Positions 121 through 57,615 of a stretch of DNA of 57,615 bases are shown here, in pieces. The stretch is taken from positions 1 through 57,615 of IMG/VR virus record IMGVR_UViG_3300045911_000150; one strand, written 5' to 3'. A model generated the notes under the pieces. The model ran no database searches and was not told the DNA's origin. It saw only the letters and a program-made list of their open reading frames with translations. Source of the stretch: a virus. Taxonomy: Duplodnaviria > Caudoviricetes. A program made the position numbers and the translations under genes. Numbering within the stretch: position 1 is the first letter of the stretch; the number at the start of each line of letters is the position of its first letter.

Positions 121-126
121 AGTTTG
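1..126 (+). repeat. Terminal direct repeat / assembly overlap, identical to 57490-57615
   Basis: Base-for-base match; contains two copies of a 60-bp unit. Confidence 0.95.
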
Positions 127-43402: not shown

Positions 43403-43430
43403 GTGCTTCTCCGTGTGTGTGAGGTGGAGG

Positions 43431-43727: not shown

Positions 43728-43754
43728 GGTCGCTCCTTACGTGATGGCGTGCGC

Positions 43755-43783
43755 AAGATACCATACCACAAGGCGATGCACAA
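43755..43783 (-). promoter_or_regulatory. Putative promoter TTGTGC-N17-TATCTT, abutting a palindrome
   Basis: 17-bp spacing; upstream of the replication genes. Confidence 0.45.
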
Positions 43784-43785
43784 GG

Positions 43786-43805
43786 TTTGTGACATCCGTC
43801 ACAAA
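43786..43805. promoter_or_regulatory. Palindrome TTTGTGAC-ATCC-GTCACAAA
   Basis: Intergenic copy. Confidence 0.85.
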
Positions 43806-43840
43806 CCTCGGCGCCGCGACTACCGTCCCCTACTGTCCCG

Positions 43841-44338: not shown

Positions 44339-44550
44339 GTGGGGGTATCCTCTTGCGTGAAGGCGCGTTGGGTCGCGATGAAGGCGTTGGCGGCCATGAA
44401 GCTGGCCGCTGCGGCGCCCTGCCAGTGTCGTGCGATCGCTTCGGCCGGGTTCTCGCCGGGTGCAATGCGGTGTCCGGCCGCCTGGCCGAACACCGAGAGG
44501 AAACACGCTTCTGCGATGCGATTGCGCTGGGCAATCTCGTCAGGACTCAC
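44335..44550 (-). CDS. Hypothetical protein
   Basis: GTG start; overlaps both neighbours. Confidence 0.5.
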   Translation of the reverse strand: MSPDEIAQRNRIAEACFLSVFGQAAGHRIAPGENPAEAIARHWQGAAAASFMAANAFIATQRAFTQEDTPT

Positions 44551-44926
44551 GGCTTCGCTCCTGCGCACGAAGCGCCTTGACGGCGCCCATGTAGTCGCCA
44601 TCCGCCCACGCGACGACGGCGTCGGCGGCATGGGCGCAGGACGTGTCGGTCTCGCGGATCGCCTCTGCCAGCCGGGCGATGAACACATCCGCCGACATCG
44701 GCGCCGCCTTCGAGTCCCGTCGGAGCGTGTTCGCCAGCCACGGCGTGCGCTCGCGGTGCAGGACGTTGGGCACGAGCACGGCCAGCACGGCCATGCCCGG
44801 GGTCACCTGCACAGACCGGGCGACCTGGCTGGGGATGAACACCGCCTCGCGCGGCTCGGTCAGGGTGGAGCCGAACGCGCTGCCCGAAGGCAGCACGTTG
44901 GTGATGGTGATCGGAACCTCATACAT
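44540..44926 (-). CDS. Hypothetical protein (OB-like N-terminus)
   Basis: AGGAG RBS. Confidence 0.65.
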   Translation of the reverse strand: MYEVPITITNVLPSGSAFGSTLTEPREAVFIPSQVARSVQVTPGMAVLAVLVPNVLHRERTPWLANTLRRDSKAAPMSADVFIARLAEAIRETDTSCAHAADAVVAWADGDYMGAVKALRAQERSRES

Positions 44927-44942
44927 GATGGTATCTCCTGAC

Positions 44943-45806
44943 TCAGTCGGGGTTGCCGAAGGCGGCCATGATCCCGGCCATGTGGTCCATGATCGCGCGG
45001 GCCTCGTCGGCCGCCTTCTGGCGCGTGGCGTCGTTGGTCCTCAGCTCGGTGGCGTCGGGCCCGGTCAGCTTCGCCTCGATCATCTGCCGCAGACGCTCCA
45101 GGTTGGGGTCGTCGACGATGTTGAGTGCGGGGATGACCTGCACCAGCTCGCGCAGGTTCTCCACCAGCTCGACCCGGATCCCGGAGTTGGTCGTGGTGCG
45201 TTGCACGTAGTTGCTCAGCGCGTCCGCGAGGCGCTTCCACGTGGGCGCCATGGCGCGGTGCAGGCGCGCTTCCGCCGTTTTCTCCAGCCGCTCCACGACG
45301 CGCGGGTCGAGGTTCTCGGACACCTTCACCCGGAAGTCGCCGAGAGCGTTGACCGGCTCCATCTCCAGGTTGACATAGAACCGGCGCCGCACTTCCGCCG
45401 GCGACGGGTAGTCGTCGGCGTTGAACAGCGCGCCCATGCGGAACCGGGCGCGCTCGCGCTCGGCCGGGTAGATGTCGAACGCGAAGCGATCTGCGGCCTT
45501 GTCGTGCGCCGCAACCAGCGGCTCGTGTTCCTCAAGGAACTGCAGCAGCCCGCTGCGCTGGGTCAGCCGCGCGCCCGCGTCCGTCCACGGCAGGGTGCGC
45601 GCGTAGAGGTGCTGCCGCACCGCCGTGGCGGCCTGACCGATCTCGGCGAGCGCCGTCTCGGGCAGCAGGTGCTTGTTGACGCGGGCGGCGCCGATCTCGG
45701 CCTGCGCCTCGGTCGTGACCTTGCGGCTGGCGGCCTTGTCCAGCCGCTGTGCGGTCCACTTCCCGATATTCAGGGTCAGGACCATGCATTCTGTGACGAT
45801 GCTCAT
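44943..45806 (-). CDS. DUF3150-like protein
   Basis: L.IG.WTA...D, RVNK.LL, TLPW...GARL, FN.DDYP...EV..RF, LNI.DDP.L. Confidence 0.7.
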   Translation of the reverse strand: MSIVTECMVLTLNIGKWTAQRLDKAASRKVTTEAQAEIGAARVNKHLLPETALAEIGQAATAVRQHLYARTLPWTDAGARLTQRSGLLQFLEEHEPLVAAHDKAADRFAFDIYPAERERARFRMGALFNADDYPSPAEVRRRFYVNLEMEPVNALGDFRVKVSENLDPRVVERLEKTAEARLHRAMAPTWKRLADALSNYVQRTTTNSGIRVELVENLRELVQVIPALNIVDDPNLERLRQMIEAKLTGPDATELRTNDATRQKAADEARAIMDHMAGIMAAFGNPD

Positions 45807-45859
45807 GTGTGTGTATCCTCATGCTGTGGGGTTAGGGATATAGGTAGACTGTCGATCTG

Positions 45860-46594
45860 TCAAGGCTTGGTGCTCAGGTAGGGGTAGTCGGTGGGATCGA
45901 AGCCATAGTCAAAGCCGTGCAGGTGCATCTGCACACGCTCCACAAAGGTCAGGTCCACGAACGATTTGTGAACCAGCTTCTGGGCCGGGACCGCATCCGA
46001 AGGAACCTTCGTGCGCTTGCGAACGCCGTCGACGGTGTGGATCACCGTCGACCCATACTCCTCAACCACGTCGAGCATCAGCGCCCACGCCGCAGCCTGA
46101 TGCTTCAGCCCCTGCAGATGCGCCTTCTGCTCGGGCGACGGCACCCACGGCGGCGCGACGGTGATGGGGTCGCCGACGGGCTTGCATCCCGGACCGCCCC
46201 AGTAAACCGCGCACTGACCGTGGAACCGCTGCGGGATCGGTCGATCGGTCCAGTCCGGTGTCTTGCCGTAGTACGAGTGGTGCATCAGCTTGACGGCCAT
46301 GTTGAAGTCGTAGTCGATGACCAGGTGCTGCATACCCTTGCGGCTGAGCCACGCGGTCGGGATCGGCTTGTCGTCACCGGGGATGTACAGCTTCGGGCAA
46401 TCCGAGTCCGTCGTCGCCACGAGTTGTACGTTGCGCTTGCCGAACCGCCGCCGCTGATCGGGATCGGGCGCGGACCCCGACCAGATGCACTCGCCGGTCG
46501 AGAAGTCGGTGAAGTTGCGGTCGACCACGTGGAACGCGCGCCAGTGATCCCAGCGGTGCGCGGCCGGGTTCGCGTTGAAGTCAGGCATCTGCAT
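45860..46594 (-). CDS. Hypothetical protein
   Basis: AGGAG RBS behind the palindrome and leader. Confidence 0.7.
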   Translation of the reverse strand: MQMPDFNANPAAHRWDHWRAFHVVDRNFTDFSTGECIWSGSAPDPDQRRRFGKRNVQLVATTDSDCPKLYIPGDDKPIPTAWLSRKGMQHLVIDYDFNMAVKLMHHSYYGKTPDWTDRPIPQRFHGQCAVYWGGPGCKPVGDPITVAPPWVPSPEQKAHLQGLKHQAAAWALMLDVVEEYGSTVIHTVDGVRKRTKVPSDAVPAQKLVHKSFVDLTFVERVQMHLHGFDYGFDPTDYPYLSTKP

Positions 46595-46623
46595 GTGAAT
46601 AGCTCCTGTGTGTGAGGTTGAAG

Positions 46624-46643
46624 TTTGTGACACATGTCACAAA
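46624..46643. promoter_or_regulatory. Palindrome TTTGTGAC-ACAT-GTCACAAA
   Basis: Intergenic; 29 bp upstream of ATG 46594. Confidence 0.85.
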
Positions 46644-46650
46644 GTTGTGG

Positions 46651-47391
46651 TCAGTAGCCCCAAGTCCGACATGCGGCGCGGCAGGCGTAGACATCGCGCC
46701 AGTCGCAGAGGTATGCGTACTCGGCTACGGTCAGGCAGTGCGCACGCATGTGGTTGTGCTCATAGTGCGCCACGGCCTTGATACCGCCCAGCTTCAGCAG
46801 CTCGGGCCACCGCGCCGGGTCGGCGATGATCCCGGCGACATCTACCTGACCCAACCACTTCCGGTCGTAGACCGGGAAGCCCATCGCCTGAGCCGCGCGC
46901 AGCCACTGGCGCACCTTGTCGAGCCCGGTCTCGCGACGGAACGCATTCGCCGCCTTGCGGTTGACGCGCGGCCAGATCCACGGTCTGGCGCCGGTCACCC
47001 CGCTGCCACGGATGGTCAGCACGTCGCCGCCACAGGCGCGATAGAAGTTGCCCGCGACGCGAACATGGCCCACGCTATACCCGCTCAGCGACGCGGAGAT
47101 GTGGGACGGAGCGTGCGCGTGGATGAACTCCGCCGTGGTCATGCTGTCGTAGATGCGCAGCACGACCGACCCGTCGGAGCGGTAGGTCACCACATCGGTC
47201 TGATGCAGGCGGAACACGACCGAGCCGTCGGCCAGCTTGCGCACACCGGTGTTGCGGTACCGACGATTCCTGAGCGGGCGCTCGTCGCCGTCGGCGGTCT
47301 CGCCGCGCCACGGTTTCATGGAGTTGTAGTAGGCCAGCGCCTCGGCATGGCTGTCGAGGCGCCGGGAAGAAAAGCGCATACCGCCGAACAT
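46651..47391 (-). CDS. Hypothetical protein
   Basis: CACACACAAGGAG leader. Confidence 0.7.
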   Translation of the reverse strand: MFGGMRFSSRRLDSHAEALAYYNSMKPWRGETADGDERPLRNRRYRNTGVRKLADGSVVFRLHQTDVVTYRSDGSVVLRIYDSMTTAEFIHAHAPSHISASLSGYSVGHVRVAGNFYRACGGDVLTIRGSGVTGARPWIWPRVNRKAANAFRRETGLDKVRQWLRAAQAMGFPVYDRKWLGQVDVAGIIADPARWPELLKLGGIKAVAHYEHNHMRAHCLTVAEYAYLCDWRDVYACRAACRTWGY

Positions 47392-47414
47392 GTTGTAGTC
47401 TCCTTGTGTGTGAG

Positions 47415-47693
47415 TCAGCTGTGAGTGAGGGCGCAGCCCGCATAGGCTGCGTCCAGGGTGGGGTAGGTCACGAACGTCCCGGGGTAGGGACGCCGGAACT
47501 TGTCGAACAGGGCCGTGTACAGGTCGTAGGCGCGCACCTCATCGCCGCACAGCACGACCGCGAACTGGCACCCGTCGCCGAAGGCGTTGCGGCAAAAGAT
47601 CTCGGCAAAGGTGCTGGTGCCGATGTCGCCCGTCTCGCGCACCACGCCGCCCGAGCAGACGAAGGCGATCAGCTTGAGTCGATGCTCGGTCAT
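47415..47693 (-). CDS. Hypothetical protein
   Basis: ATGA overlap with the vWA gene. Confidence 0.55.
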   Translation of the reverse strand: MTEHRLKLIAFVCSGGVVRETGDIGTSTFAEIFCRNAFGDGCQFAVVLCGDEVRAYDLYTALFDKFRRPYPGTFVTYPTLDAAYAGCALTHS

Positions 47694-48871
47694 ATCCGCA
47701 CCACCTCTCCGAACGGCACCGCGACCTTGGTCGTGCAGACCGTGATCAGGGGGTAGTCCGGGGCAGAGCCAGGCCACGGAGTCTCGCCGTCCGTGATCAG
47801 CACGACCACGTCGGGGTTCAGCTCTGCGGCGTAGGCCAGCGGCACCCGCATGTCGGTGCCGCCGCCGCCCTTGGGCTCAAGCCGGATGGTGTCGCCGGAC
47901 TCGAACACCTGTTCGCCTGCGACGCGGGTATCGGCCCACAGGACGTGGATCGACCGGGGGTTCACTTCCTCGGCGATGTCCACGATCGAGCCGCCGATGC
48001 TCCGCAGATCGTCGCTGGTGATCGAGCCGGACGTGTCGCCGATCACCACCACCTTGCGGATCTGCGTGCTGTGGCGGCTGGGCAGGTAGACCTGCGAGAA
48101 GCGGCGGTTGCGGCGCGACCACGACTCGTTGGCCTTGACCACCGACCGCATCATGGGGCGCAGCAGCTCCTGCCACGGCACCGGGGGGTGCAGCAGGTTG
48201 TCGAGGGCCCGCAGCAGGCTGCCGGGCATGTTGCCCGCCATGCGGCCCATGTTGGTCGCCTGGGCGATGCGCTCGGTCAGGCGGCGCTCGATCTCGCGCA
48301 GCTTGGCCGGGTCGTGTGCAGCCGCCTCAGCCGCCGGGTCGGGCTTGCCGTCCTTGCCCAGCGAGCCGGGCGCCAGCAAGTCGCTGCCGGTGCCGGGGAT
48401 GCCATCGCCCTGCGTGTTGGGCGCCCCGCTGCCGGAGCCTTTGCCCGATCCGGGCCGCTGCGGGCGCTTGGGCTGCTTCTTCTCCAGCAGGGCGTAGATC
48501 TGCTCGGCGGCCATGTCCTTGTAGGTCTTGTCGACCAGCCCGCCCTCGGGCAGCTTGAACCCGCAGTCGATCAGGATCAGGTTGACGGCGTAGTCACAGG
48601 CCATGTTCCAGACCACAGGGTCTCGGCCCTGCCGCCGCAGCCCGTGCTTGAGCGCGATATGCAGCACCTCATGGGCCAGCACCCCGACGATCTCGTCGAG
48701 CGGCAGGCTGTCGAACCAGTCGGGGTCATAGGCGATGGACACCATGTCGGTGGCCGCCGTGCCGAGCCCCGGCACCCGGATCATGGGCGCGGAGACCAGC
48801 AGGGTGCCGAAGAAGGCTGACTTGAGCAGCAGCCTCGCTCGGGTTTTGAGGACTTTGTCAGAGTGCGGCAT
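47690..48871 (-). CDS. DUF2201-type metallopeptidase plus vWA domain protein
   Basis: TAATD, AHEVLHIAL.H..R, WN.ACDY..N, MIDAS DTSGSI, GGGGTD, ITDG. Confidence 0.9.
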   Translation of the reverse strand: MPHSDKVLKTRARLLLKSAFFGTLLVSAPMIRVPGLGTAATDMVSIAYDPDWFDSLPLDEIVGVLAHEVLHIALKHGLRRQGRDPVVWNMACDYAVNLILIDCGFKLPEGGLVDKTYKDMAAEQIYALLEKKQPKRPQRPGSGKGSGSGAPNTQGDGIPGTGSDLLAPGSLGKDGKPDPAAEAAAHDPAKLREIERRLTERIAQATNMGRMAGNMPGSLLRALDNLLHPPVPWQELLRPMMRSVVKANESWSRRNRRFSQVYLPSRHSTQIRKVVVIGDTSGSITSDDLRSIGGSIVDIAEEVNPRSIHVLWADTRVAGEQVFESGDTIRLEPKGGGGTDMRVPLAYAAELNPDVVVLITDGETPWPGSAPDYPLITVCTTKVAVPFGEVVRI

Positions 48872-48902
48872 GTGTGTAGAACTCCTTGAGGGTAGGGTGA
48901 GG

Positions 48903-48922
48903 TTTGTGACATATGTCACAAA
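48903..48922. promoter_or_regulatory. Palindrome TTTGTGAC-ATAT-GTCACAAA
   Basis: Between the AAA and vWA genes; arms extend to GAGG/CCTC. Confidence 0.85.
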
Positions 48923-48934
48923 CCTCGTGGGGTC

Positions 48935-49951
48935 TCACGGCTGGAACAGGGTGCGATACTGAGTCGCCAGCTTGAGGAACTCAGGCGCACCCAGCAGCGC
49001 GTTGTCGCGCTTGAGCGCCAGCTGCCACGCGAGGATCAGGAACTCCGGGTCCATGCGGGTCAGGTAGGTGTGGAGCGCCGAGACGTTCTTGAGGTCCATG
49101 GCGCCCGAGACCGACACGGCGGTCGCGTAGCGCATGGACAGCTCGTCGGGCAGCGGCGCCCCGGCCGGGTCGGCGAGAATCTTCGAGACCGGGATCACGT
49201 TCTTGATGTTCTCGATGAACCCCCAGAACTCCACCGCCGCGCCCTCGCCAACCAGGCCGGCCATGCCGATCCGCTTGGCTTCCTCGGGCGCCTTGGACGC
49301 ATAGACCCTAAAGGCGGCCATCCACGTGCGCGGGGTGGCGAACACCCGCTCGCCGCGCGCGGGGTCGAAGGTGGACACCAGCGGCTTGCGGAAGGACAGG
49401 AAGGCCACGCACTCGGCCGGGACCTTGCCCATCATGTAGGCCACTGCCACATCCGCCGACACGCCGAGCTCGACGTGGCAGAAGCGGTTGGCCAGCGGCA
49501 GGGGCATCTTGTTGGTGACGCCCTTGTCACCGTCGCGGTTGCCGGCGGCGATCTTGTAGACGTTCGGCTTGAGCCGATGCTCGCCGCAGGCGCCGTCGAG
49601 GATCAGCTGATAGGCCACGGCCATGACCGCCGGTTCGGCCGAGTTGATCTCGTCGAAAAACAGCACGATGGGCCGATTGTCAGGGAAGGCATCGTTGCCG
49701 ACGAAAGGCAACGTGCCGGGCATGTTCCAGACAGTCAGTCCCTTCTCCGGCACCGGGATGCCGCGCAGGTCCACCGAGTCGTACTGGCTGAGGCGGATGT
49801 CCACCAGCACGGCGCCCATGCGGTCGGCCAGCTGACGGACAGCATCCGACTTGCCGACGCCGGGCATACCCCAGATCATCACGGGCAGGTTGAGCGGAAT
49901 CGCCACGGTGTCGAAGAACTGGGCGAGGCTGACGTGATCGACGATATGCAT
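48935..49951 (-). CDS. MoxR/dynein-related AAA+ ATPase
   Basis: WGMPGVGKS, DLRGIP, LFFDEIN, AAGNR, LANRF, TPRTW. Confidence 0.9.
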   Translation of the reverse strand: MHIVDHVSLAQFFDTVAIPLNLPVMIWGMPGVGKSDAVRQLADRMGAVLVDIRLSQYDSVDLRGIPVPEKGLTVWNMPGTLPFVGNDAFPDNRPIVLFFDEINSAEPAVMAVAYQLILDGACGEHRLKPNVYKIAAGNRDGDKGVTNKMPLPLANRFCHVELGVSADVAVAYMMGKVPAECVAFLSFRKPLVSTFDPARGERVFATPRTWMAAFRVYASKAPEEAKRIGMAGLVGEGAAVEFWGFIENIKNVIPVSKILADPAGAPLPDELSMRYATAVSVSGAMDLKNVSALHTYLTRMDPEFLILAWQLALKRDNALLGAPEFLKLATQYRTLFQP

Positions 49952-49972
49952 GTTGCAGTCTCCTGTGAGTAG

Positions 49973-49992
49973 TTTGTGACACCCGTCACAAA
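49973..49992. promoter_or_regulatory. Palindrome TTTGTGAC-ACCC-GTCACAAA
   Basis: Between the promoter and the RBS of the AAA gene. Confidence 0.85.
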
Positions 49993-50033
49993 GTTGGGTT
50001 TGGTTGGTAGGCACAGCTTTCCGAACCAAGCAT

Positions 50034-50062
50034 ACACTATCATGGCTCGGACCTTATGTCAA
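50034..50062 (-). promoter_or_regulatory. Sigma70-type early promoter TTGACA-N17-TAGTGT
   Basis: Matches the promoters at 54566-54594 and 57435-57463. Confidence 0.75.
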
Positions 50063-50096
50063 GCATTATCTCACATGTTGAGATTTCTCCCTCGGG

Positions 50097-50387
50097 TCAT
50101 GCGTGCCTCCAGTCGTTGACGATCCGGGGCTCGCCCTCGAACACGAGGTGCAGATTCAGGCCCTCGGCGACGGCCGCGATCTGCGCGGCGACCGTGGGGT
50201 CGTCGGTGTCGGGCTCGCCCTCGATGTCGCGGTAACGCTCCAGCGCGACCAGCGCGAGGATGGTCTCCCGGTCGCAGGCCGGCACACCGTGGAGCGTGTA
50301 GACCAGCGGCCACGGCGAGCACGGCGGGAACGGGGTGGCGGACTCCGTGACGATGGCGGTCACGGTGCGCGCGGTGTGGCAGTTCAT
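50097..50387 (-). CDS. Hypothetical early protein
   Basis: CAACACATGGAGACCTGAC-ATG leader. Confidence 0.7.
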   Translation of the reverse strand: MNCHTARTVTAIVTESATPFPPCSPWPLVYTLHGVPACDRETILALVALERYRDIEGEPDTDDPTVAAQIAAVAEGLNLHLVFEGEPRIVNDWRHA

Positions 50388-50415
50388 GTCAGGTCTCCAT
50401 GTGTTGAGGTTTAGG

Positions 50416-50435
50416 TTTGTGACACACGTCACAAA
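50416..50435. promoter_or_regulatory. Palindrome TTTGTGAC-ACAC-GTCACAAA
   Basis: 1 bp after the upstream stop. Confidence 0.85.
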
Positions 50436-50436
50436 G

Positions 50437-50697
50437 TCAGGCTTCGGGCAGGGACTCCCACAGGTGGTAGGACTCGTCGCCGCCCGTGGGCAACCACTCA
50501 ACCTCGTAGGGCTCGATGCCCTCGTCTTCGCACTGGCAGGACCATTCGGACGCCCAGTACTCGATGTGCGTGTCGGACTCCTGGCGGCAGTAGTGGTTGC
50601 GCCAGACGCACGGGTTGCCGCTGGTGTCCACGTCGAGGTGGGCGAAGTCGGGGTGCCCGAGGCGCACGAGGTCCGCGCGGGTCTGGTAGGCGGTCAT
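50437..50697 (-). CDS. Hypothetical early protein (acidic, Cys/Trp-rich)
   Basis: ATGA-coupled; NHYC...WSCQCED. Confidence 0.65.
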   Translation of the reverse strand: MTAYQTRADLVRLGHPDFAHLDVDTSGNPCVWRNHYCRQESDTHIEYWASEWSCQCEDEGIEPYEVEWLPTGGDESYHLWESLPEA

Positions 50698-51224
50698 GCT
50701 TCAATCTCCAGATGTGCGACGGCCTCAGCCGCCATGGCGAACGGATCGTCGCCGACGAGCAGGAACCCGTCCGCGTCGTTGTCGGGATCCCAGAGAACCC
50801 ACCGGCCCTTGTGCTCGGCCGCACGGGCGATCAGGGCCTCGGCGTCGTTCAGCTCCTTGCGCGCCTCGGCCTCGAACGCCGGGCGCAGGTCGATGGCGTA
50901 GCCGTGCGCGGTCAGCGCCTGGGTCGCCGGGGACCACGGCCACAGGGTGCCGTCTGCCGGGGCCTCGGACCACATGCCGCCCTCGCTGGGCGACAGGGTG
51001 CAGTCGTTGGCCAGCCACTTGCCATTCTCGTCGGCCCACTTCACCACGGGCACGCCATCGCCGAAGGTCATCTGGCACCCGGTGCAGGTCAGCACGGTGC
51101 CCCGCGGCACGCGCATCGCCCAGCCCTGCTGGGCGTAGGGCCCGGTCGGCTTCATGCCGCTCAGCTGGACATCGTCGGCCACCACGCGCCACTTCTGGCC
51201 GGGCTTGAAGTCTCTCTGGATCAT
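50694..51224 (-). CDS. Hypothetical early protein
   Basis: Conserved leader and RBS. Confidence 0.7.
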   Translation of the reverse strand: MIQRDFKPGQKWRVVADDVQLSGMKPTGPYAQQGWAMRVPRGTVLTCTGCQMTFGDGVPVVKWADENGKWLANDCTLSPSEGGMWSEAPADGTLWPWSPATQALTAHGYAIDLRPAFEAEARKELNDAEALIARAAEHKGRWVLWDPDNDADGFLLVGDDPFAMAAEAVAHLEIEA

Positions 51225-51246
51225 GTTAGGTCTCCATCTGTTGAAG

Positions 51247-51266
51247 TTTGTGACACATGTCACAAA
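51247..51266. promoter_or_regulatory. Palindrome TTTGTGAC-ACAT-GTCACAAA
   Basis: 1 bp after the upstream stop. Confidence 0.85.
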
Positions 51267-51267
51267 G

Positions 51268-51684
51268 TCAGGTCAGCATCCGCACGGCGGTGTTTGCCCG
51301 GTTGTACATGTCGTCGAGCCAGGCGTTCCAGCGCAGCGCGGCGGCGAGGCGCGCAGAGTCGGTCGCCTCGTCGAGCGTGAGCAGGATCGACCCGTCGTAC
51401 GCTTCGTGAAACGTGGCGACAGCAGGCGCGATGGCCGGGTCGAACAGCATGACGGAGGCGTCGTACTCGTCGCCCCGCCCGGAGCGCCACGCGAAGGGCG
51501 TCCCGGTGCCGATCAGGTGGCTCTCCACCGCCTCGGGCAGCGAGCCGTAGTTGACTTCTTCCCAGCCGTACTGGATCGGCGAGTCAACGTCGGTCGGCTC
51601 GCCCAGCGCGCTCGTGAGGCGCTCCATCAGCTCCGGCGTCGGCGGGCTGGCGAGGATCAAGATGCAGTAGGTGCGATCACTCAT
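51268..51684 (-). CDS. Hypothetical early protein
   Basis: CATGGAGACCTGAC-ATG leader without a palindrome. Confidence 0.7.
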   Translation of the reverse strand: MSDRTYCILILASPPTPELMERLTSALGEPTDVDSPIQYGWEEVNYGSLPEAVESHLIGTGTPFAWRSGRGDEYDASVMLFDPAIAPAVATFHEAYDGSILLTLDEATDSARLAAALRWNAWLDDMYNRANTAVRMLT

Positions 51685-51753
51685 GTCAGGTCTCCATGCG
51701 GTTGGTGCAAGCGCGGGCCGTGGGGTAGACCACGCCGCGTACCTCGATCTGCA

Positions 51754-52098
51754 TCACCAGTCGTAGAGCGGCAGCTGGTCCAGCGTGTCGCCGTCCCTGT
51801 CGAGGCACAGCCAGACGCAGCCCAGTTTGCGCGCACAGGTCATGCAGTCCGCGAGGTCGGGCGGCAGGGTGTCGCTGCACTCGGCCCACGCCTGCGCGTC
51901 GCCCGGCACGTGGATCCACCAGCCGTAGTCGCCCTTCGGATACACGGTCAGGCGCAGGCGGGGCTGTCGTGCCCACGGGTCGGTCGCGCGGGTCATGCGC
52001 CGGCAGTGGCTGTCCAGCCGCTGCGCGGTGCTTTCGCGGATGTGTCCGGTGCTGATGGTGAGCATGAGCTCGACGCCGACGGGATGTCGGTAGTCCAT
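51754..52098 (-). CDS. DUF5983-like protein
   Basis: LTISTGHI, YGWWIHV, LP.DL.....AR..GC.W...DRDG.....LPLYDW. Confidence 0.75.
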   Translation of the reverse strand: MDYRHPVGVELMLTISTGHIRESTAQRLDSHCRRMTRATDPWARQPRLRLTVYPKGDYGWWIHVPGDAQAWAECSDTLPPDLADCMTCARKLGCVWLCLDRDGDTLDQLPLYDW

Positions 52099-52126
52099 GT
52101 CAGTTCTCCATGTGTTGAGGTTTAAG

Positions 52127-52146
52127 TTTGTGACATGTGTCACAAA
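52127..52146. promoter_or_regulatory. Palindrome TTTGTGAC-ATGT-GTCACAAA
   Basis: Contains the stop codon of 52140-52544. Confidence 0.85.
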
Positions 52147-52544
52147 GTCAGTGCAGCCGCTGCGCGCAGCCGGGTGAACCAGTCGGGGTGCAGGCTGATG
52201 GAGTAGTCCCACTCCACGCAGGTTGCGAGGAACAGGGGGCAGTACTCGAAATCGAAGGCCACGGGATCGTGCTCGGGGCTCAGCGCGGCCCAGCCGATGT
52301 CGCAGGGCAGCACTATCTGCGACACGGCGTGGCGCAGTCCGATCGAGCCGTACCTGACCCGGACAGCGGCGTAGGTCTGCGCCACCGCGCTTTCGCCGGG
52401 GTCGATGAAGGCTTCCCAGAGGCACATCGCCGTTTCCAACTCGCTCTTGCGCGAGCGCGCCTCGGACTGGCGCAAATAGTCCTCGACACGCGCGATCTCG
52501 GTCAGGGTCATCTGTGCAGCCCAGTTGGGGGGAATGTGCTTCAT
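52140..52544 (-). CDS. Hypothetical early protein
   Basis: GGAGG RBS; ATGA overlap; FDFEYCP. Confidence 0.7.
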   Translation of the reverse strand: MKHIPPNWAAQMTLTEIARVEDYLRQSEARSRKSELETAMCLWEAFIDPGESAVAQTYAAVRVRYGSIGLRHAVSQIVLPCDIGWAALSPEHDPVAFDFEYCPLFLATCVEWDYSISLHPDWFTRLRAAAALTL

Positions 52545-52762
52545 CGCTTCTTCCTCCGGGCGAAGATCTCGATGCCGAGGTCGAGGTTGATGGCGAACAG
52601 GGTGTAGTCGCGCGGCCAGCGCGTCTTGCCCCGACGGATGGCATAGATCGCCGACGTGGACACGCCGATGCGCTTGCTCAGGCGGTAGACATCCTCGCCG
52701 TGGAGCGCATCGCGCACCACGGCCATCATGTCGGCACCGCTGGCGACGGGGATGTCGGTCAC
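52541..52762 (-). CDS. XRE/Cro-like helix-turn-helix protein
   Basis: LSKRIGVSTSAIYAIRRGKTRWPR; AAGGAG RBS; GTG start. Confidence 0.7.
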   Translation of the reverse strand: MTDIPVASGADMMAVVRDALHGEDVYRLSKRIGVSTSAIYAIRRGKTRWPRDYTLFAINLDLGIEIFARRKKR

Positions 52763-52766
52763 GGGC

Positions 52767-52913
52767 CTACTCCTTCGTGAAGCCGTGGAACCAGCCGGGC
52801 CCGCGGGTGTCGGGGCGGCTGCACCACGCCTGCGCCTCGGCCAGGGTCAGGCCGCGCCGGATGACGCGCCGGCGCCCGCTGCGCGAGAAGCGGATGATCA
52901 TGTAGGTGTCCAT
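52767..52913 (-). CDS. Small conserved phage protein, 48 aa
   Basis: Conserved leader; [14 protein letters not shown]...WF.G. Confidence 0.7.
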
Positions 52914-52941
52914 GTCAGGTCTCCATGTGCTGAGGGTGAAG

Positions 52942-52961
52942 TTTGTGACACATGTCACAAA
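52942..52961. promoter_or_regulatory. Palindrome TTTGTGAC-ACAT-GTCACAAA
   Basis: Contains the stop codon of 52955-53179. Confidence 0.85.
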
Positions 52962-53179
52962 CTCTGGTCGTGCAGGGCGGCGTCGGCCCGGCGAAACTGG
53001 CGGCTGTCGTGCGGGTTGCCGCTGTTGCACATCGGGCACGAGCATTTCCGCAGGTTGTCGGCCCAGCGCAGGACCTTGGTCATGTCGCGCCAGCCGAGGT
53101 GGCGGGTCACGACGGGCAGAGCGCGGGCGATGGCCTTCTGGCGCTGAGCGCGGCGCCAGGCGCGGTCACGGGTGGTCAT
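52955..53179 (-). CDS. Small Arg-rich protein with a CSCPMC..GNP motif
   Basis: GGAG RBS. Confidence 0.6.
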
Positions 53180-53180
53180 G

Positions 53181-53669
53181 TCAGAAAACTCCGATGGAAC
53201 GAAAGCTGGTGGTCTTGTCGGCGGCCACGAGGACGTGGTCGTGCAGGGTCACGTCGATGGTCTTGAGCGCGTCGGCGATCCGGCGGGTCATGTGGATGTC
53301 GGCCTCGCTGGGGCTCACGCTCCCGCTGGGGTGATTGTGGGTGATGATGACGGCCGAGGCGTCGAGCGCCAGCGCCCGCGCCACGATCTGCCGGGGGTAG
53401 ACGGGAACGTGGTCCACGCTGCCCCGCGCCACCTCCTCGTCGGCGATCAGGGCGTTGCGCTTGTCGAGGTAGAGGACGCGGAAGCACTCCACCCGCTGCG
53501 GCCCCAGCGTGACCTTGAGGTAGTCGAGCAGCGCGCCCCACGACTGGATGACGGGCCGGCCGGCGATCATGCGGGCGAGGATGGCCCGCGCCTCGCGCAA
53601 GGTGCGCTGCTGGTCAGGGGTGAGCATGTGCGCCCAGTCCGGCTCCCGGATGTCAGCGATCTTTTCCAT
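53181..53669 (-). CDS. radC: RadC-like JAB-domain protein
   Basis: E.FRVLYLD.RN.LI, V.VYPRQI, HNHPSG...PS.AD...T, LHDHVLV. Confidence 0.92.
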   Translation of the reverse strand: MEKIADIREPDWAHMLTPDQQRTLREARAILARMIAGRPVIQSWGALLDYLKVTLGPQRVECFRVLYLDKRNALIADEEVARGSVDHVPVYPRQIVARALALDASAVIITHNHPSGSVSPSEADIHMTRRIADALKTIDVTLHDHVLVAADKTTSFRSIGVF

Positions 53670-53696
53670 GTGTCGTCTCCTTGTGTGTGAGTCAAG

Positions 53697-53716
53697 TTTG
53701 TGACATGTGTCACAAA
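53697..53716. promoter_or_regulatory. Palindrome TTTGTGAC-ATGT-GTCACAAA
   Basis: Contains the stop codon of 53710-54003. Confidence 0.85.
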
Positions 53717-54003
53717 GTCTGTTTGCGGCACCAGTCCAGCAGGGCGGGCGGCAGGTGTTTCGCGGCGCAGGCCAGCGCCCCCTCGGGGTCGCTCCGCGCG
53801 CACCGGTCCAGCAGGTCGGGCGGCAGCCGGTGCGCGGCGTGGACCAGCGCCAGCGGCGGATGCTCTCGCGCGCACCAGTCCAGCAGGTCGGGCGGCAGCC
53901 GGTCCGCGGCGTGGACCAGCGCGCGCCACGACGCAGGCTGCTCGTCGTCCGGCAGGCCAAGCAGCGCCACCAGCGCCGCCACCCGGTCCCGCGCGTCGGT
54001 CAC
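53710..54003 (-). CDS. Small helical-repeat protein (3 x about 24 aa, AL..AA..LPP.LLD.C)
   Basis: GTGA overlap with the upstream gene; internal repeats. Confidence 0.6.
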   Translation of the reverse strand: MTDARDRVAALVALLGLPDDEQPASWRALVHAADRLPPDLLDWCAREHPPLALVHAAHRLPPDLLDRCARSDPEGALACAAKHLPPALLDWCRKQTL

Positions 54004-54455
54004 AGCGCCACCCACCGCTGGCCGGTGCGCGGATCGCGGATGGTGACGGTGCGCGTGGGGCCGTACACGTCCTCGATCATGGCCGGGCGGTAGCGGCCCG
54101 AGGCCACGGCCCGGTCGAAGGCATCCAGCACGGACTGGGGAGTCTGCCCCACGTGGGCGCGCGGCCGGGCGACGATGCCCGCCGGCTTGCGCTTGCTGGC
54201 CGGGTCCGGGATCGCGTCGCTGCACTCGGGCAGGGCGGGCGCGCGGCCCACCGACACGGCGCAGGGACTCAGATCGGCCGGCCTGACCACGGGGGCGCTC
54301 TTGCGGCGGCGCGGCTTTGCCGGCGCGGCAGGGTTCAGCCCGAGGCTCATCAGGAACCGCGCGTGGGCGGCATGGGCGGCATCGCGGCTGGCGCGCTCGC
54401 CAGCAGCCAGAGGCGGAGCGGAGCGACCGGAGCGGTCGGCGACATAGATGATCAT
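54000..54455 (-). CDS. Hypothetical early protein
   Basis: CACACACAAGGATACCTGCC-ATG leader; first gene after the promoter. Confidence 0.6.
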   Translation of the reverse strand: MIIYVADRSGRSAPPLAAGERASRDAAHAAHARFLMSLGLNPAAPAKPRRRKSAPVVRPADLSPCAVSVGRAPALPECSDAIPDPASKRKPAGIVARPRAHVGQTPQSVLDAFDRAVASGRYRPAMIEDVYGPTRTVTIRDPRTGQRWVAL

Positions 54456-54486
54456 GGCAGGTATCCTTGTGTGTGAGGTTGAGGAG

Positions 54487-54506
54487 TTTGTGACATGTGT
54501 CACAAA
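54487..54506. promoter_or_regulatory. Palindrome TTTGTGAC-ATGT-GTCACAAA
   Basis: Between the promoter and the RBS. Confidence 0.85.
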
Positions 54507-54565
54507 GTCCGGGCAGGCACTTCGGGCAGTCACTTCGGGCAGGCACTTTTTCGATTATGTGTATA

Positions 54566-54594
54566 AGACTACCACATATTGGGGCTTATGTCAA
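54566..54594 (-). promoter_or_regulatory. Sigma70-type early promoter TTGACA-N17-TAGTCT
   Basis: Perfect -35; AT-rich upstream. Confidence 0.75.
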
Positions 54595-54641
54595 GCATAA
54601 AATATCCCGGAGCGCCTCCATGCGGGGCACTCCGGGCAGGA

Positions 54642-54740
54642 TCGGGCGGCAGAGTCGGGCGGCAGGGTCGGGCGGCAGGGTCGGGCGGCAGGGTCGGGCG
54701 GCAGGGTCGGGCGGCAGGGTCGGACGGCAGGGTCGGGCGG
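54642..54740. repeat. 13-bp tandem repeat (GGGCGGCAGGGTC), about 7.5 copies
   Basis: Seen directly; intergenic. Confidence 0.9.
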
Positions 54741-54771
54741 GACTACTGTGGCGCCGCCTGCGGGGCGCCTG

Positions 54772-55350
54772 TCATTCCGCGGCCTCTCGGGCTGCGGCGG
54801 CCCGAGCCTTGCGCCGGGCCTTCAGCTTGTCGTGGCAGGTCCTGATCACAGCGACGATCAGATCGCACTCCCTGGGGTCAGGACGCTCGGCCCAGATGCC
54901 GCGCATCAGAGTGTCGACCATCGCCCGCGCGGCGCTTCGAGCGTGGCTGCCTCCCCACGGATCGACCTTGCCGTTGTAAGGGGTGCGGGGCGGCAGCCAC
55001 ACAAGGTTGTCCAGCGCGCAGTCGGCAAGAATGCCGTTCTTGTGCTCCAGCACCATGTCCGGGATGTCGGGCTTGAGTCCGAAGGCAGCGGCCACGGCGT
55101 GCTTCAGCTGGATCGCGCAATACTTGCGCTGGCCGTGAACCCGGTGGAAGCCGATCGGCTGGATGAACAGGGTGCCGTTGGGCCGCACGGACGCCTTGAG
55201 CGGGCGGGGATGGTCCATGCGCTGACCGGCGAAGCTGTGCGTGCCTGCCCATGTGCGAACGCGGCCGAGATTGGAAATCTCCACGAGTCCACGGAACTCG
55301 GTGTCTCGGACAGGCGGCAGCGGTTTCCACACTTCTTGAGGGGTCGTCAT
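54772..55350 (-). CDS. NUMOD4/HNH homing-endonuclease-like protein
   Basis: EVWKP...EISNLGRVRT; VA.AF...EHKNG...DCALDNL.W (HNH partly degenerate); AGGAG RBS. Confidence 0.75.
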   Translation of the reverse strand: MTTPQEVWKPLPPVRDTEFRGLVEISNLGRVRTWAGTHSFAGQRMDHPRPLKASVRPNGTLFIQPIGFHRVHGQRKYCAIQLKHAVAAAFGLKPDIPDMVLEHKNGILADCALDNLVWLPPRTPYNGKVDPWGGSHARSAARAMVDTLMRGIWAERPDPRECDLIVAVIRTCHDKLKARRKARAAAAREAAE

Positions 55351-55842
55351 CGGAGATTCTCCTGGGTTGGGGCTGGTGGAAGGCATGTAGCAGACGGTTT
55401 TGCCCATTTCAAGGGGGTTAATAGAGGCTTTTGCCCATTGGGCGGGCTAATGGGTTGTTTTCGACCAAGGTGAGTCAGTCAGGGGGCGGTTAAGTAGCTG
55501 ATGCAGCACGAAGGTGAGTCCACTGGTCAAAATAGACACGGTTTTAGAGCGATAGTAAGTGTGTCTGGCATAGGATTCGGGGGGATTCGGGAGTTCGCCA
55601 CATGTTGGCAACTAAAAATGGCATTCCGTACCGTGACTACAGCAAAAAAACCTGTCTATCCAGTCTATTTTATATATCTATTGACTTATAAACAAACAAA
55701 AACAACAACATGGAGATCGCCCGACTGAAGGCCTCCGGCGACCACTAGACTCAGTGGACCCCCCCAATGGACGCATTGGACCCCCCCAATAGGTCGCGTT
55801 TTCTCTATTCGCCTACCCCGAGGTGGTCAGAATCGGCCCAAG

Positions 55843-56180
55843 TTTGTGACATCTATCACAAACTTGTTGGAGACTTGCCCTATTGGGGACCTACACTAGG
55901 TTCACCGGTTGGAAACTTTCTCTATTCGCGCCTACACTAGGTTCACCGGTTGGAAACTTCCCCTATTCACGCACTACACTAGGTTCACATGTTGGAAACT
56001 TTCCCTATTCACGCACTACACTAGGTTTGCATGTTGGAAACTCTCTCTATTCGCTCACTACACTAGGTTTACATGTTGGAAACTTTTCCTATTCGTGCGC
56101 GAGTTTGTGACATGTGTCACAAACTTGTTGGAGACTTCACCTATTCGTGCGCGGCACTAGAGTCACTTGTTGGAGATTCT
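55843..56180. repeat. About 42-bp-period iteron-like array with two embedded palindromes (55843-55862 variant, 56104-56123)
   Basis: CTACACTAGGTT...GTTGGAAACT....CTATTC units start at 55891, 55932, 55974, 56016 and 56058. Confidence 0.9.
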
Positions 56181-56400
56181 TGCCTGGCGACGGCACTACC
56201 GTCCCACTACTGTCCCGTATCGGCTGCTGGCGCAGCCTGCATTGGGGTCGGCTGCTGGTGCAGCCTGCGTGGTGAATAGAGAAATGGAGTCCGCGTTGGG
56301 GGCGGCGGGCTGCGCCGCCTGCGTGGTGAATAGGATCGTCGCGGCGAATAGGCCCGTTGTGGCGAATAGGGCAATAGGGTCTGGGCGAGTCCTCAGCAAG

Positions 56401-56420
56401 TTTGTGACATGTGTCACAAA
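56401..56420. promoter_or_regulatory. Palindrome TTTGTGAC-ATGT-GTCACAAA
   Basis: Just downstream (- strand) of the double terminator. Confidence 0.85.
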
Positions 56421-56444
56421 CTCGGGCCCTGTGCGGCAGGCATG

Positions 56445-56530
56445 AAAAAACCCCCCGGCTTGCGCCGGGGGGTTGGGGGCCGGGGGCTGGGCGGCAGGCA
56501 TGAAAAAACCCCCCGGCTTGCGCCGGGGGG
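56445..56530 (-). terminator. Two identical intrinsic terminators in tandem
   Basis: CCCCCCGGC-GCAA-GCCGGGGGG-TTTTTT at 56445-56472 and 56503-56530. Confidence 0.88.
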
Positions 56531-56555
56531 TTGGGGGCCGTTCGGGCCGGGGCGG

Positions 56556-57365
56556 TTACTTCGAGGTCTCCGCCTTGACGGCCGCGATGAAGGCCTCATA
56601 GGCGCTGCGCAGCGGGCCGGGCAGGCTCTTGCGATTTTTCTTCATGTTGGCGACCATGAACGCGGCTTCGTTCTGCGCGTGGGCGTACCATTCGGCCTTG
56701 CTCACCAAGATCGGCAGGGTGAGGCCCTGCGCGGCCGGCACCTCGGCCGGCACCTCGGCCGGCGCCTCGGCCGGCGCCTCGGGCTCCGACTCGGTCTGCG
56801 TCATGCGCGGCTTGCGCGAGCTGATCTTGACGGCGGTCATGTCGGCCGGAGGCGGGTTCGTGGCCAGCGGCACGAAGAACGCATCCGAATTGATCGCCGT
56901 GGTGTCGGCCGGGGTGGGCGACTCGGTGTCGGCCGGGGTGGGCGACTCGGTGTCGGCCGGGGTGGGCGACTCGGTGTCGGTCGCGGCCGACGGCCGCGCG
57001 CCGCCCTGCGGCGCGTCGCTCTGAAGATCCAGCTTGGCCAGCAGGCGCGAACGGGCCTGCCGCGCGGCATCGTAGGCGGTTTTCCAGCCCTGCGGTCGAT
57101 CCTTGTCGGCGAAATCGAACCACGCCAGCGCCTTGGCCATGGATTTGACGTTGCAGGGCATCCCCAACGCGTGGGCGATGTAGCCCGCATCGAACGTACG
57201 CCGCATCTGAGTGGACACGACGCCAGCGACACCGGCCGAGTTGCGGAACGCCTTTTCGACGGCCGCGCGCAGCGCCGCATCCTTGGCGCTGGCCATGTGG
57301 CCCGCATCGAAGAGTCCGCGATCCGCCTCGGACGGGTTGAACGGGGTCGGCTTGGGTTTGGTCAT
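56556..57365 (-). CDS. Hypothetical early protein with (ADTESPTP)n and (APAE)n linkers; paralog of 930-1577
   Basis: AGGAG RBS; own promoter and double terminator. Confidence 0.8.
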   Translation of the reverse strand: MTKPKPTPFNPSEADRGLFDAGHMASAKDAALRAAVEKAFRNSAGVAGVVSTQMRRTFDAGYIAHALGMPCNVKSMAKALAWFDFADKDRPQGWKTAYDAARQARSRLLAKLDLQSDAPQGGARPSAATDTESPTPADTESPTPADTESPTPADTTAINSDAFFVPLATNPPPADMTAVKISSRKPRMTQTESEPEAPAEAPAEVPAEVPAAQGLTLPILVSKAEWYAHAQNEAAFMVANMKKNRKSLPGPLRSAYEAFIAAVKAETSK

Positions 57366-57434
57366 AGCAGTAACTCCTATGTGTGATTTGGGCGGGTTGC
57401 CCGGCTGGCCTCGGTTATTCGCGACCATACACAT

Positions 57435-57463
57435 AAACTAGCCCATGTTCGGGTCTATGTCAA
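57435..57463 (-). promoter_or_regulatory. Sigma70-type early promoter TTGACA-N17-TAGTTT
   Basis: Perfect -35; immediately downstream of the palindrome ladder. Confidence 0.75.
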
Positions 57464-57489
57464 GCACTATTTTACATGTTGGCGGTTCT

Positions 57490-57615
57490 AGTTTGTGACA
57501 CATGTCACAAACTCCGCTAGGTGTTGCGGGGTTCATGTTCGGTCCAGCGAGTTTGTGACACATGTCACAAACTCCGCTAGGTGTTGCGGGGTTCATGTTC
57601 GGTCCAGCGAGTTTG
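57490..57615 (+). repeat. Terminal repeat identical to 1-126
   Basis: Direct comparison. Confidence 0.95.

Follow-up and report, generated by a model that had tools for sequence, protein, structure and literature searches.

In T4-type phages, promoter-early stem-loop (PeSL) cassettes mediate the shuffling of genes (PMC2839356, PMC4122927). Cluster K mycobacteriophages carry a 13-bp start-associated repeat (SAS) with inverted repeats upstream (ESAS; PMC3203893), and the stoperators of Cluster A mycobacteriophages are dispersed repressor sites (PMC9283540). Here we describe a palindrome, TTTGTGAC-N4-GTCACAAA, that recurs in the early region of a tailed phage, IMG/VR record IMGVR_UViG_3300045911_000150. 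We refer to the whole analysed stretch of 57,615 nt as the window; it is the entire phage record and a complete phage genome of 57.6 kb. An original prediction, made from the letters alone, proposed that genes take their stop codon from this palindrome as integron cassettes do from attC. We find instead that the palindrome belongs to a repeated joint between early genes, and alignment with a close relative shows these joints to be the points at which gene content differs.

The 20-base palindrome matches the window 17 times, compared with 0.04 matches expected from shuffled sequences. The search pattern TTTGTGACNNNNGTCACAAA returned 16 exact matches and one with a single mismatch, and none of 100 shuffles reached 17. 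Since the first and last 126 nt of the window are identical, the matches at 57492 and 57552 repeat those at 3 and 63, leaving 15 distinct copies, every one within 43786-57571 and thus confined to the leftward early/middle region (Table 1). Nine of the 15 have a minus-strand start codon 21-31 nt downstream. The other six belong to non-coding control regions, where no start codon follows directly: two in a 60-bp tandem repeat, three in non-coding repeats at 55.8-56.4 kb and one 59 nt before a DUF7303 gene. All 16 exact copies have a 4-nt spacer. The arms are invariant while the centre varies, and the centre is found in both orientations relative to transcription (ATGT, ACAT). Solo half-sites are absent from the window and from its close relative, the contig G002.

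Aligned joints share the consensus CnGAC-TTTGTGAC-AnnT-GTCACAAAC-TT-(G-poor leader)-GGAGAC-CTnA-CATG. The leaders are 56-94% alike among copies; for the joints at 50416, 52127 and 52942 the likeness is 87-94%. The Shine-Dalgarno sequence and start codon fall in a 17-nt start motif, CATGGAGACCTGACATG, found in seven copies at no more than three mismatches (0.09 expected), all on the minus strand and at start codons. Five of these have a palindrome upstream, while those at 51682 and 40436 do not. Since the start motif is also present without the palindrome, the ribosome-binding site (RBS) and ATG form a second module outside it. Palindrome, G-poor leader and start motif would together make up an expression joint of 50-60 nt that precedes units of one to three early genes.

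This architecture resembles that of Cluster K, where an asymmetric RBS-holding repeat (13 bp there, 17 nt here) likewise sits at start codons, has inverted repeats upstream of a subset of its copies (about half there, five of seven here) and recurs in related genomes in front of the same gene families. The likeness is one of architecture only, as the sequences are unrelated (CATGGAGACCTGACATG versus GGGATAGGAGCCC). In addition, the window has perfect 8-bp arms around a 4-nt spacer (5 nt in G002) whereas the reported ESAS arms are imperfect, 17 bp long and 4-13 bp apart; the window palindromes also occur away from start codons; and host and phage lineage are unrelated.

RNA folds of six palindrome-bearing joints (a seventh fold was of a joint without a palindrome) and single-stranded DNA folds of four joints, each on both strands (eight folds), all gave a perfect, unbulged stem of 8-11 bp closed by a 4-nt loop. 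In both sets the palindrome is not part of a larger imperfect structure, and the fold z-scores of joints in their context range from -2.1 to +0.4. No T-run follows the stem-loop on the sense strand, which by the usual rule would make it no terminator, and a scan of 43000-57615 for sigma-70-like promoters found zero sites (shuffle mean 1.6).

We compared the window with G002, a 43.6-kb contig that was found through its 90% identical g45806 protein in a search that returned 583 homologs of g45806. G002 is 70% complete, is 81-87% identical to the window in DNA, is colinear with window 11136-50401 and ends opposite window 54.6 kb. With P for the palindrome and primes for G002 homologs, G002 reads P, g54455' g54003', P, g50697' g53179', P, orf62 g50387', P, ATPase. 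The window reads P, g54455 g54003, P, RadC g53179, P, g52913 g52762 g52544, P, g52098 g51684, P, g51224 g50697, P, g50387, P, ATPase. The window therefore holds a block of seven genes and three palindromes (50402-52910) that is missing from the corresponding place in G002. Among its genes are a weak HTH_3 match (52541-52762) and one for a DUF5983 protein (51754-52098); the G002 homolog of g50697 lies elsewhere. All six window/G002 homology breakpoints lie no more than 17 nt from a start or stop codon and within joints, four of them at the start motif and not at the palindrome. Contigs of the sequencing runs X5 and X6 use the same joints: they pass from 50374 to 52964, skipping 2589 nt, and from 53185 back to 50531, and the letters between the two pieces are the G002 joint. 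Run X5 also holds a low-depth contig of the window type. In addition, three orthologous window/G002 joints differ by indels of 10, 8 and 15 nt directly at the left edge of the palindrome.

The expectation that genes are joined at the element thus holds in that gene content is swapped at these seams; the breaks, mostly at the start motif, give no sign of a site-specific reaction. PeSL cassettes offer a close parallel to this pattern. They are reported as small repeated stem-loop cassettes between non-essential ORFan genes of a hypervariable early region, they bound insertions, deletions and replacements between close relatives as the joints do at all six breakpoints, and homologous recombination is given as the cause of exchange between sequences that are otherwise unrelated. 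Exchange between neighbouring PeSL cassettes is also reported to form mini-circles. Unlike the reported cassettes, the window joints have no sigma-70-like promoter, leave only 21-31 nt between palindrome and ATG, and have a hairpin without a U-tract whose conserved partner is the Shine-Dalgarno/start motif. Their arms are also kept letter for letter across phages with proteins about 40% identical.

The stop codons bear on the same question. Three minus-strand genes do share a TGA inside the palindrome (positions 5-7 of the palindrome, offset +13 on the + strand): 52140-52544 ends in ..ALTL, 52955-53179 in ..DQSL and 53710-54003 in ..KQTL, each through xxT TTG TGA. Two more, 50437-50697 and 51268-51684, stop at a TGA that is followed by C and then the palindrome, as had been claimed. 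All five have an in-frame third-position GC content (GC3) of 0.86-0.94, and homologs of g53179, g54003 and g50697 exist elsewhere. At the remaining intergenic copies, the upstream stop lies 10 to 107 nt before the palindrome. A palindrome arm has TGA in one of three frames and three of the five abutting genes enter in that frame (P ~0.21 by hand arithmetic); whereas the palindrome copies far exceed the number due to chance, the shared TGA does not stand out from it. Similarly, two upstream open reading frames (ORFs) of 106 and 171 aa in the relative G004 stop on the palindrome TGA, while its ATPase stops on an abutting TAA. The shared stop arises because genes are packed tightly against an element that happens to contain TGA, and these stop codons are a by-product of that packing.

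Comparison of C-termini across relatives gives a divided answer. The tails of some genes beside the palindrome are plastic. The window g53179 ends in ..DQSL and its G002 homolog in ..DQWLEVCDMMSQT, with an 8-nt indel at the palindrome edge through which the G002 gene reads through the palindrome; three further homologs have three other tails beyond a conserved ..RRADAA core. The window g54003 ends in ..RKQTL and the G002 protein in ..REQLCLPRGL after a 15-nt indel, the palindrome TGA ending both. The window g47693, with no palindrome after it, ends in ..THS, and its G004 homolog in ..IYNL at the palindrome TGA. Genes that have a stop of their own keep it: g50697 ends in ..SLPEA on the same TGA in the window, where a palindrome follows, and in G002, where none does, and the ATPase ends in ..LFQP on the same TGA in both although the gap from stop to palindrome is 12 nt in the window and 2 nt in G002. 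The claim that the element supplies the stop of all five genes therefore does not stand, as g50697 and the ATPase keep their own stop irrespective of the palindrome. The original prediction had named an identical C-terminus and stop in genomes lacking the palindrome as evidence against itself; g50697 has both in G002, where no palindrome stands behind the gene, and the tails of g53179 and g47693 differ. The picture of a complete joint, with a stop on one side and RBS plus ATG on the other, likewise survives in part: the stop is provided in some genes, the RBS and ATG by the separate 17-nt motif. As judged from these homologs, the C-terminal tails of genes abutting the palindrome are set by the junction and change with the frame of entry, and the idea of element-given stops is neither refuted nor general.

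Two observations concern the encoded proteins themselves. The LPPxLLDWC repeats of g54003 are about 24 residues long, and the window protein has 97 aa compared with 246 aa for its G002 homolog (42164-42904); a repeat-unit deletion in this gene is also present in run contigs (53779 to 53867). The sole match to g52544 in a search of 5.8 billion proteins is g52544 itself.

A scan of IMG/VR with the palindrome found arrays in three further genomes, all with the same 16 arm bases: nine copies in G001, 11 in G004 (eight of them with one arm reading TCTG) and three in G003. G001 and G004 are syntenic with the entire window genome at 29-74% protein identity; the more distant G003 has replication and early core genes in common with it at 24-59%. 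None of the three has homologs of the window genes at 50-57 kb. Start codons follow their palindromes after 15-46 nt, among them the starts of the ATPase, VWA and g45806 homologs, and the 16 arm bases are unchanged across a divergence that leaves proteins about 40% identical. The centres, by comparison, are uniform or nearly so within a genome and different between genomes. G004 has ACGT 11 times, its TCTG arm (8/11 copies) standing in either orientation; G002 has six copies of TTTGTGAC-ATCAT-GTCACAAA, with a 5-nt spacer and in one orientation, and one copy that keeps 4 nt; and two metagenome contigs have CCCC/GGGG three times each.

To place these arrays in a wider clade, we collected 80 loci through the ATPase and 46 through homologs of g45806. 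None of the 80 ATPase loci has a g45806 homolog or the window palindrome, though one (L021) carries another palindrome five times at the same position. At least three copies of one palindrome occur in 19 of the 46 g45806 loci versus 1 of the 80 ATPase-only loci. Five of these 19 arrays are of the TGTGAC type (two with N5) and 14 consist of private palindromes, for example TTTGCGAC-N4, TTTGTTAGA-N3 and CGTCAGAT-N1, which in most copies lie 3-25 nt before the Shine-Dalgarno sequence and often directly before the g45806 homolog. Locus L358 is closer to the window by its proteins (TerL 74%) than G001 or G004 are, yet its palindrome is TTTGTTAGA-N3-TCTAACAAA, so palindrome type does not follow the protein tree. 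In bacteria, 119 of 120 loci among the matches listed hold the 21-mer once and one holds it three times; at least five short metagenome contigs carry 21-mer arrays and most other listed contigs a single copy. Lineage-private palindromes and single bacterial copies argue against a host factor and favour a phage-specific partner or homogenisation. The only cultured relatives found for the clade are three cyanophage records, for which a literature search by name gave nothing relevant; a literature search that combined the arm sequences with 'phage' gave primer-type matches only.

Two further phages carry repeats of other kinds. The complete relative G005 (L020) has neither the canonical palindrome nor a g45806 homolog, and shows TGA-TTTTGTAAAYGAGGTTCACAAA-ATG three times (locus positions 4971, 5795 and 8077), an imperfect hairpin whose outer arms are similar and whose loop contains the Shine-Dalgarno sequence. 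In Pseudomonas phage Rollin, the nearest cultured phage by capsid (46% identity), a palindrome AAAAGGTAG-N7-CTACCTTTT occurs four times at one end of the record only (L108, 3-500).

Taken together, these data lead us to propose, at about even confidence, that the palindrome is a lineage-specific cis-regulatory site in repeated joints that also serve as recombination substrates. For the narrower proposal that the palindrome itself is an operator for a phage protein, our confidence lies at or just short of even. The original prediction had argued against a simple operator in a spacer; such an operator is nevertheless the function that we prefer for the palindrome. Most likely, a dimeric regulator encoded by the phage would recognise the palindrome as duplex DNA and would control the early region co-ordinately, as operator or roadblock. 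Genes are packed against the joint and ended by the first in-frame stop, which in one frame of three is the TGA of the left arm. Recombination between joints, whether homologous or driven by microhomology, would be the most likely source of the exchanges, because the joints are near-identical direct repeats, and selection would remove breaks within genes. A site-specific reaction of the integron kind does not, in our view, take part. A symmetric binder of duplex DNA is suggested by the invariant arms, the variable centre in both orientations and the lack of solo half-sites, and further by the six copies in control regions away from start codons. G-U pairs are nearly absent from the stems, and imperfect copies of known direction have 8 G-U, 6 A-C and 9 other pairings on the sense strand, with no G-U excess. 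The orthologous placement of palindromes before the same conserved genes in G001, G003 and G004 (ATPase, VWA, DUF3150-like) speaks for the proposal as a whole.

Stoperators come close to this proposal: short sites in many copies, in transcribed regions and at gene boundaries, with lineage-specific variants. As reported, they differ in being asymmetric, orientation-dependent and bound by the monomeric immunity repressor of temperate phages, whereas the window site is symmetric and neither a repressor nor an integrase gene was found in the window. Several results weigh against an operator in recombining joints. Comparisons by Pfam, PHROGs and profiles found no helix-turn-helix (HTH) or other DNA-binding family common to the same-palindrome genomes. 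G002 has spacers of both 4 nt and 5 nt, ATCAT standing in six of its seven copies, a mixture which a rigid dimer should not tolerate and a hairpin would. In many genomes the palindrome lies 3-22 nt from the Shine-Dalgarno sequence, a position that suits a role at the RNA level. The lack of sigma-70-like sites in 43000-57615 means that operators are not placeable relative to promoters, and breakpoints at gene borders would equally be left by random recombination followed by selection.

The palindrome could alternatively act as an RNA hairpin in a polycistronic early transcript, as a processing or stabilising signal, an insulator of translation starts or a translational operator for a phage RNA-binding protein. 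We regard this as unlikely, though it deserves some weight. It would account for the clean stem with a 4-nt loop in every palindrome joint folded, for the position inside a transcribed operon 3-22 nt upstream of the Shine-Dalgarno sequence with a G-poor, hence unstructured, leader behind it, and for the use of both spacers in G002; relatives also keep structure and position while both arms change together (TTTGTGACA versus TTTGTTAGA in L358), and G005 has its three related imperfect hairpins. RNA-binding proteins, however, usually read loops rather than stems, and here the stems are invariant and the loops variable, the loop standing in both orientations in the window. Nor do the imperfect copies, with 8 G-U against 6 A-C, show a sense-strand bias; in G004, the sense strand carries a C-A mismatch in four of the six imperfect copies of known direction. 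Add to this the copies without a start codon behind them, fold z-scores that are unremarkable and the lack of any Rfam family match, and a site read as DNA seems to us the better account. A host protein of the CRP family, whose core consensus is TGTGA-N6-TCACA, would be another DNA-level reader, tying early expression to host physiology or being titrated by the array. This core is matched perfectly in every copy of the window, G001, G003 and G004, no conserved phage-encoded binder was found, single 21-mer copies are scattered over many bacterial phyla among the matches listed, and the copy nearest to a putative early promoter has its centre about 73 nt before a start site placed by eye. We nevertheless consider a CRP site highly improbable: the cores are spaced by N7 in six of seven G002 copies, sister phages have unrelated palindromes at the same places, eight invariant bases per arm are more than CRP needs, and arrays occur in phage contigs only, 119 of the 120 listed bacterial loci being single-copy. 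A hairpin promoter for a virion RNA polymerase, as in N4, was also considered and set aside on the sequence evidence. The best cultured matches of the ATPase are N4-like phages, but the 2395-aa virion protein gave no polymerase signal in sequence searches, with no Pfam match, no significant PDB sequence match and a best BLASTP E-value of 0.62 against N4 gp50; in G004, moreover, the Shine-Dalgarno sequence begins 6 nt behind the palindrome, too close to it for a start site to fit in between.

Other explanations place the palindrome itself at the centre of the exchange. The integron attC site measures 57-141 bp, with a 7-bp core GTTRRRY at the crossover, an imperfect R''/L''-L'/R' architecture and extrahelical bases. 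The window shares with integrons a series of short, promoterless gene units in one orientation, split by a repeated palindrome downstream of a promoter region, gene content that varies at the joints among relatives, and some ORFs that end within the element; a recombinase would insert gene cassettes at the folded palindrome. The analogy fails. Tyrosine, serine and Y1 recombinases (PF00589, PF00239, PF01797) gave zero matches in the complete genome, with controls positive in 14, 12 and 6 of 14 genomes. The single-strand folds that the original prediction had proposed show a perfect stem and no attC-like extrahelical bases on either strand of the four joints. The element, at 20-24 bp, is about one third to one seventh of the attC length and lacks the R''/L''-L'/R' architecture, and its GTTTGTG does not fit the GTTRRRY core. 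Breakpoints are not confined to the element, four of six being at the start motif, and palindromes stand at fixed positions before conserved core genes in distant relatives. Membership in the integron family is rejected, and we give an attC-like insertion site almost no credence. A mobile or homogenised palindrome, similar to REP or MITE elements, or an endonuclease cut repaired by copying another joint, would explain why derived states are common to the copies of a genome (ATCAT six times in G002; ACGT 11 times and TCTG in 8/11 copies of G004; CCCC/GGGG three times each in two metagenome contigs) and why indels sit at the left edge of the palindrome in three orthologous joints. The genome encodes HNH/NUMOD4-like, endonuclease VII-like and PD-(D/E)XK nuclease proteins. 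It has no transposase or Y1 HUH gene, however, aligned joints have no consistent target-site duplication, and orthologous positions before conserved genes in deeply diverged phages fit a retained function and not repeated insertion. For stoperators, dispersed sites are also reported to change in concert with their repressor (PMC6550527). We hold such mobility or homogenisation to be improbable. Only slightly more credible, and still a long shot, is that the palindrome is the handle of an active system, either a hairpin-specific nuclease or recombination function that copies joints or a sequence-specific RNA endonuclease. Joint copying, if true, would account for the genome-wide change of centre length, from 4 to 5 nt, in a phage 85% identical to the window as well as for the indels at the left palindrome edge, and early genes of the anti-defence type would be captured and reshuffled without an integrase. 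An RNA endonuclease would cleave the polycistronic early message at every hairpin and would be nature's equivalent of the Csy4-type insulators that synthetic biology employs.

Under the operator reading that we prefer, the phage should encode a binder. Pfam and PHROGs on 47 window proteins, and Pfam on 105 early ORFs of three relatives, identified none. HTH_3 matched g52762 at 19.2 bits, below the cut-off of 23, and this gene has no homolog in the same-palindrome genomes. Protein identities within and between palindrome types singled out no protein that tracks the type. Presence/absence profiling picked g45806 (Table 1) as the only conserved gene whose presence tracks the arrays, and this distribution makes it our lead for the binder, as a candidate only. 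Its AlphaFold model (pLDDT 86.8) matched only generic helical bundles, a point against the operator reading: Foldseek gave no match at E <= 0.001, VIA-align only helical-bundle rows with Z <= 10.1, and a protein Atlas search only DUF7303 and DUF3150 clusters. The palindromes that each lineage owns form a natural series of site variants in which a binder could be found by covariation. More generally, the idea that repeated regulatory cassettes are the seams of phage mosaicism, developed in T4-type phages, is extended here to an uncultivated clade in which the cassette is a perfectly conserved palindrome plus start motif and not a promoter plus terminator. The genes carried between joints (RadC-like, DUF5983 and ORFans) are typical of host-takeover and anti-defence loci.

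Table 1. Palindromes, start motifs, breakpoints and genes of the joint region (window coordinates).
Feature	Position	Strand	Remarks
Palindrome	43786..43805		59 nt upstream of DUF7303 gene (43431-43727); sole copy with a 4-nt spacer in G002
Palindrome	46624..46643		between g47391 and g46594
Palindrome	48903..48922		between MoxR-like ATPase and VWA/DUF2201 gene; same position in G002, G004 and G001
Palindrome	49973..49992		before ATPase gene
Palindrome	50416..50435		spacer ACAC (+ strand); between g50697 and g50387; upstream TGA 1 bp before
Palindrome	51247..51266		between g51684 and g51224; upstream TGA 1 bp before
Palindrome	52127..52146		own TGA (52140-52142, + strand) is the stop of g52544
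Palindrome	52942..52961		own TGA is the stop of g53179; joint common to G002; border of window-specific block
Palindrome	53697..53716		own TGA is the stop of g54003
Palindrome	54487..54506		before g54455
Palindrome, one mismatch	55843..55862		non-coding repeat region; no start codon behind
Palindrome	56104..56123		non-coding repeat region
Palindrome	56401..56420		just after two terminator-like hairpins behind first early gene
Two palindromes	57492..57571		60-bp tandem repeat; same DNA as window 3-82
Start motif CATGGAGACCTGACATG	50385..50401	-	Shine-Dalgarno and ATG of g50387; G002 homology ends exactly at its 5' edge
Start motif of g51684	51682..51698	-	no palindrome upstream
Start motif of g52913	52911..52927	-	G002 homology begins at its ATG
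Breakpoint	50401		5' edge of start motif
Breakpoint	50436		base between stop codon and palindrome
Breakpoint	50710		13 nt before an ATG
Breakpoint	52911		at an ATG
Breakpoint	53185		6 nt before an ATG
Breakpoint	53728		12 nt from a palindrome
Block of seven genes and three palindromes	50402..52910	-	in window; absent at this place in G002
g45806, DUF3150-like gene	44943..45806	-	only conserved gene whose presence tracks palindrome arrays
g50697	50437..50697	-	own TGA 1 bp before palindrome
DUF5983 gene	51754-52098		among ORFan cassettes
g52544, ORFan	52140..52544	-	stop in palindrome
g53179, small CSCPxC protein	52955..53179	-	stop in palindrome; homolog tails differ
RadC-like JAB protein gene	53181-53669		among ORFan cassettes; other gene in its place in G002
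g54003, LPPxLLDWC repeat protein	53710..54003	-	stop in palindrome; G002 tail five residues longer, more repeats
HNH/NUMOD4-like gene	54772-55350		among ORFan cassettes; below Pfam cut-offs

The remainder of the genome provides the setting of these joints. Head, portal, terminase, adaptor and the 2395-aa virion protein are encoded on the + strand at 2.2-31.5 kb. The minus strand, from 57.4 down to 31.5 kb, encodes a primase-helicase, an SNF2 helicase, a PD-(D/E)XK nuclease, an exonuclease, an MT-A70 methylase, a family A polymerase, the MoxR-like ATPase, a VWA/DUF2201 protein and a run of small genes. Genes of the palindrome region are on this strand, with GC3 of 0.86-0.95 in the called frames. 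RadC-like and DUF5983 proteins are gene types of plasmid leading regions. The window has no tRNA genes, and the phage looks lytic, repressor and integrase genes not having been found. The sequencing runs that contain this DNA are labelled as hot-spring and microbial-mat metagenomes, no RNA run being listed among them, and the cultured-phage collection holds no close relative at the DNA level. In the 2395-aa virion protein (window 10931-18118), the last ~650 residues alone are conserved among four homologs and match the C-terminal ends of PHROG giant-protein families, one of them named DarB-like.

Relatives encode PF18909 (dATP/dGTP diphosphohydrolase N-terminal domain), a dCMP deaminase or a dCTP deaminase-like protein: G004 (L018) at 2329-2658 and 644-1210, G003 (L019) at 1932-2429 and G001 (L017) at 14233-14793. 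These deoxynucleotide enzymes, predicted from sequence, hint at modified DNA bases.

Several features surround the palindromes in control regions. Window 1-126 is identical to 57490-57615 and comprises 2.1 copies of the palindrome-bearing 60-bp unit; it could represent a real terminal repeat, or else a circular assembly whose ends overlap. Contig depth in this 126-nt repeat is 240, compared with 80-155 nearby, and the real number of 60-bp units may be higher than seen. Downstream of the palindromes of this tandem repeat, a promoter-like site TTGACA-N17-TAGTTT was read by eye. At the other end of the early/middle region, the palindrome at 43786 is followed after 20 nt by TGnTATGGT, an extended -10-like element that was also recognised by eye and is kept in the window (43740-43785) and in G002 (~34750-34800). 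The centre of this palindrome would lie near -42 of a possible middle promoter. The equivalent site of G001 is without the TGnTATGGT element.

Two identical GC-rich hairpins of 11 pairs each, with T-runs, lie on the minus strand at 56449-56474 and 56507-56532 and adjoin the 3' end of the gene that opens the early region (56556-57365). Since the hairpins directly follow this gene, they seem to shut off the first transcription unit from the early genes that remain. Rfam returned two sub-threshold rows on them and zero on the palindrome. Finally, window 55870-56180 (minus strand) and 55640-55700 contain five tandem units of ~46 bp (GAATAG..AGTTTCCAAC ATGTAAACCTAGTGTAG). Each flank of this array holds a unit whose second half is the palindrome instead, followed by an AT-rich stretch, and the region could represent an iteron-bearing origin or an array of promoters.

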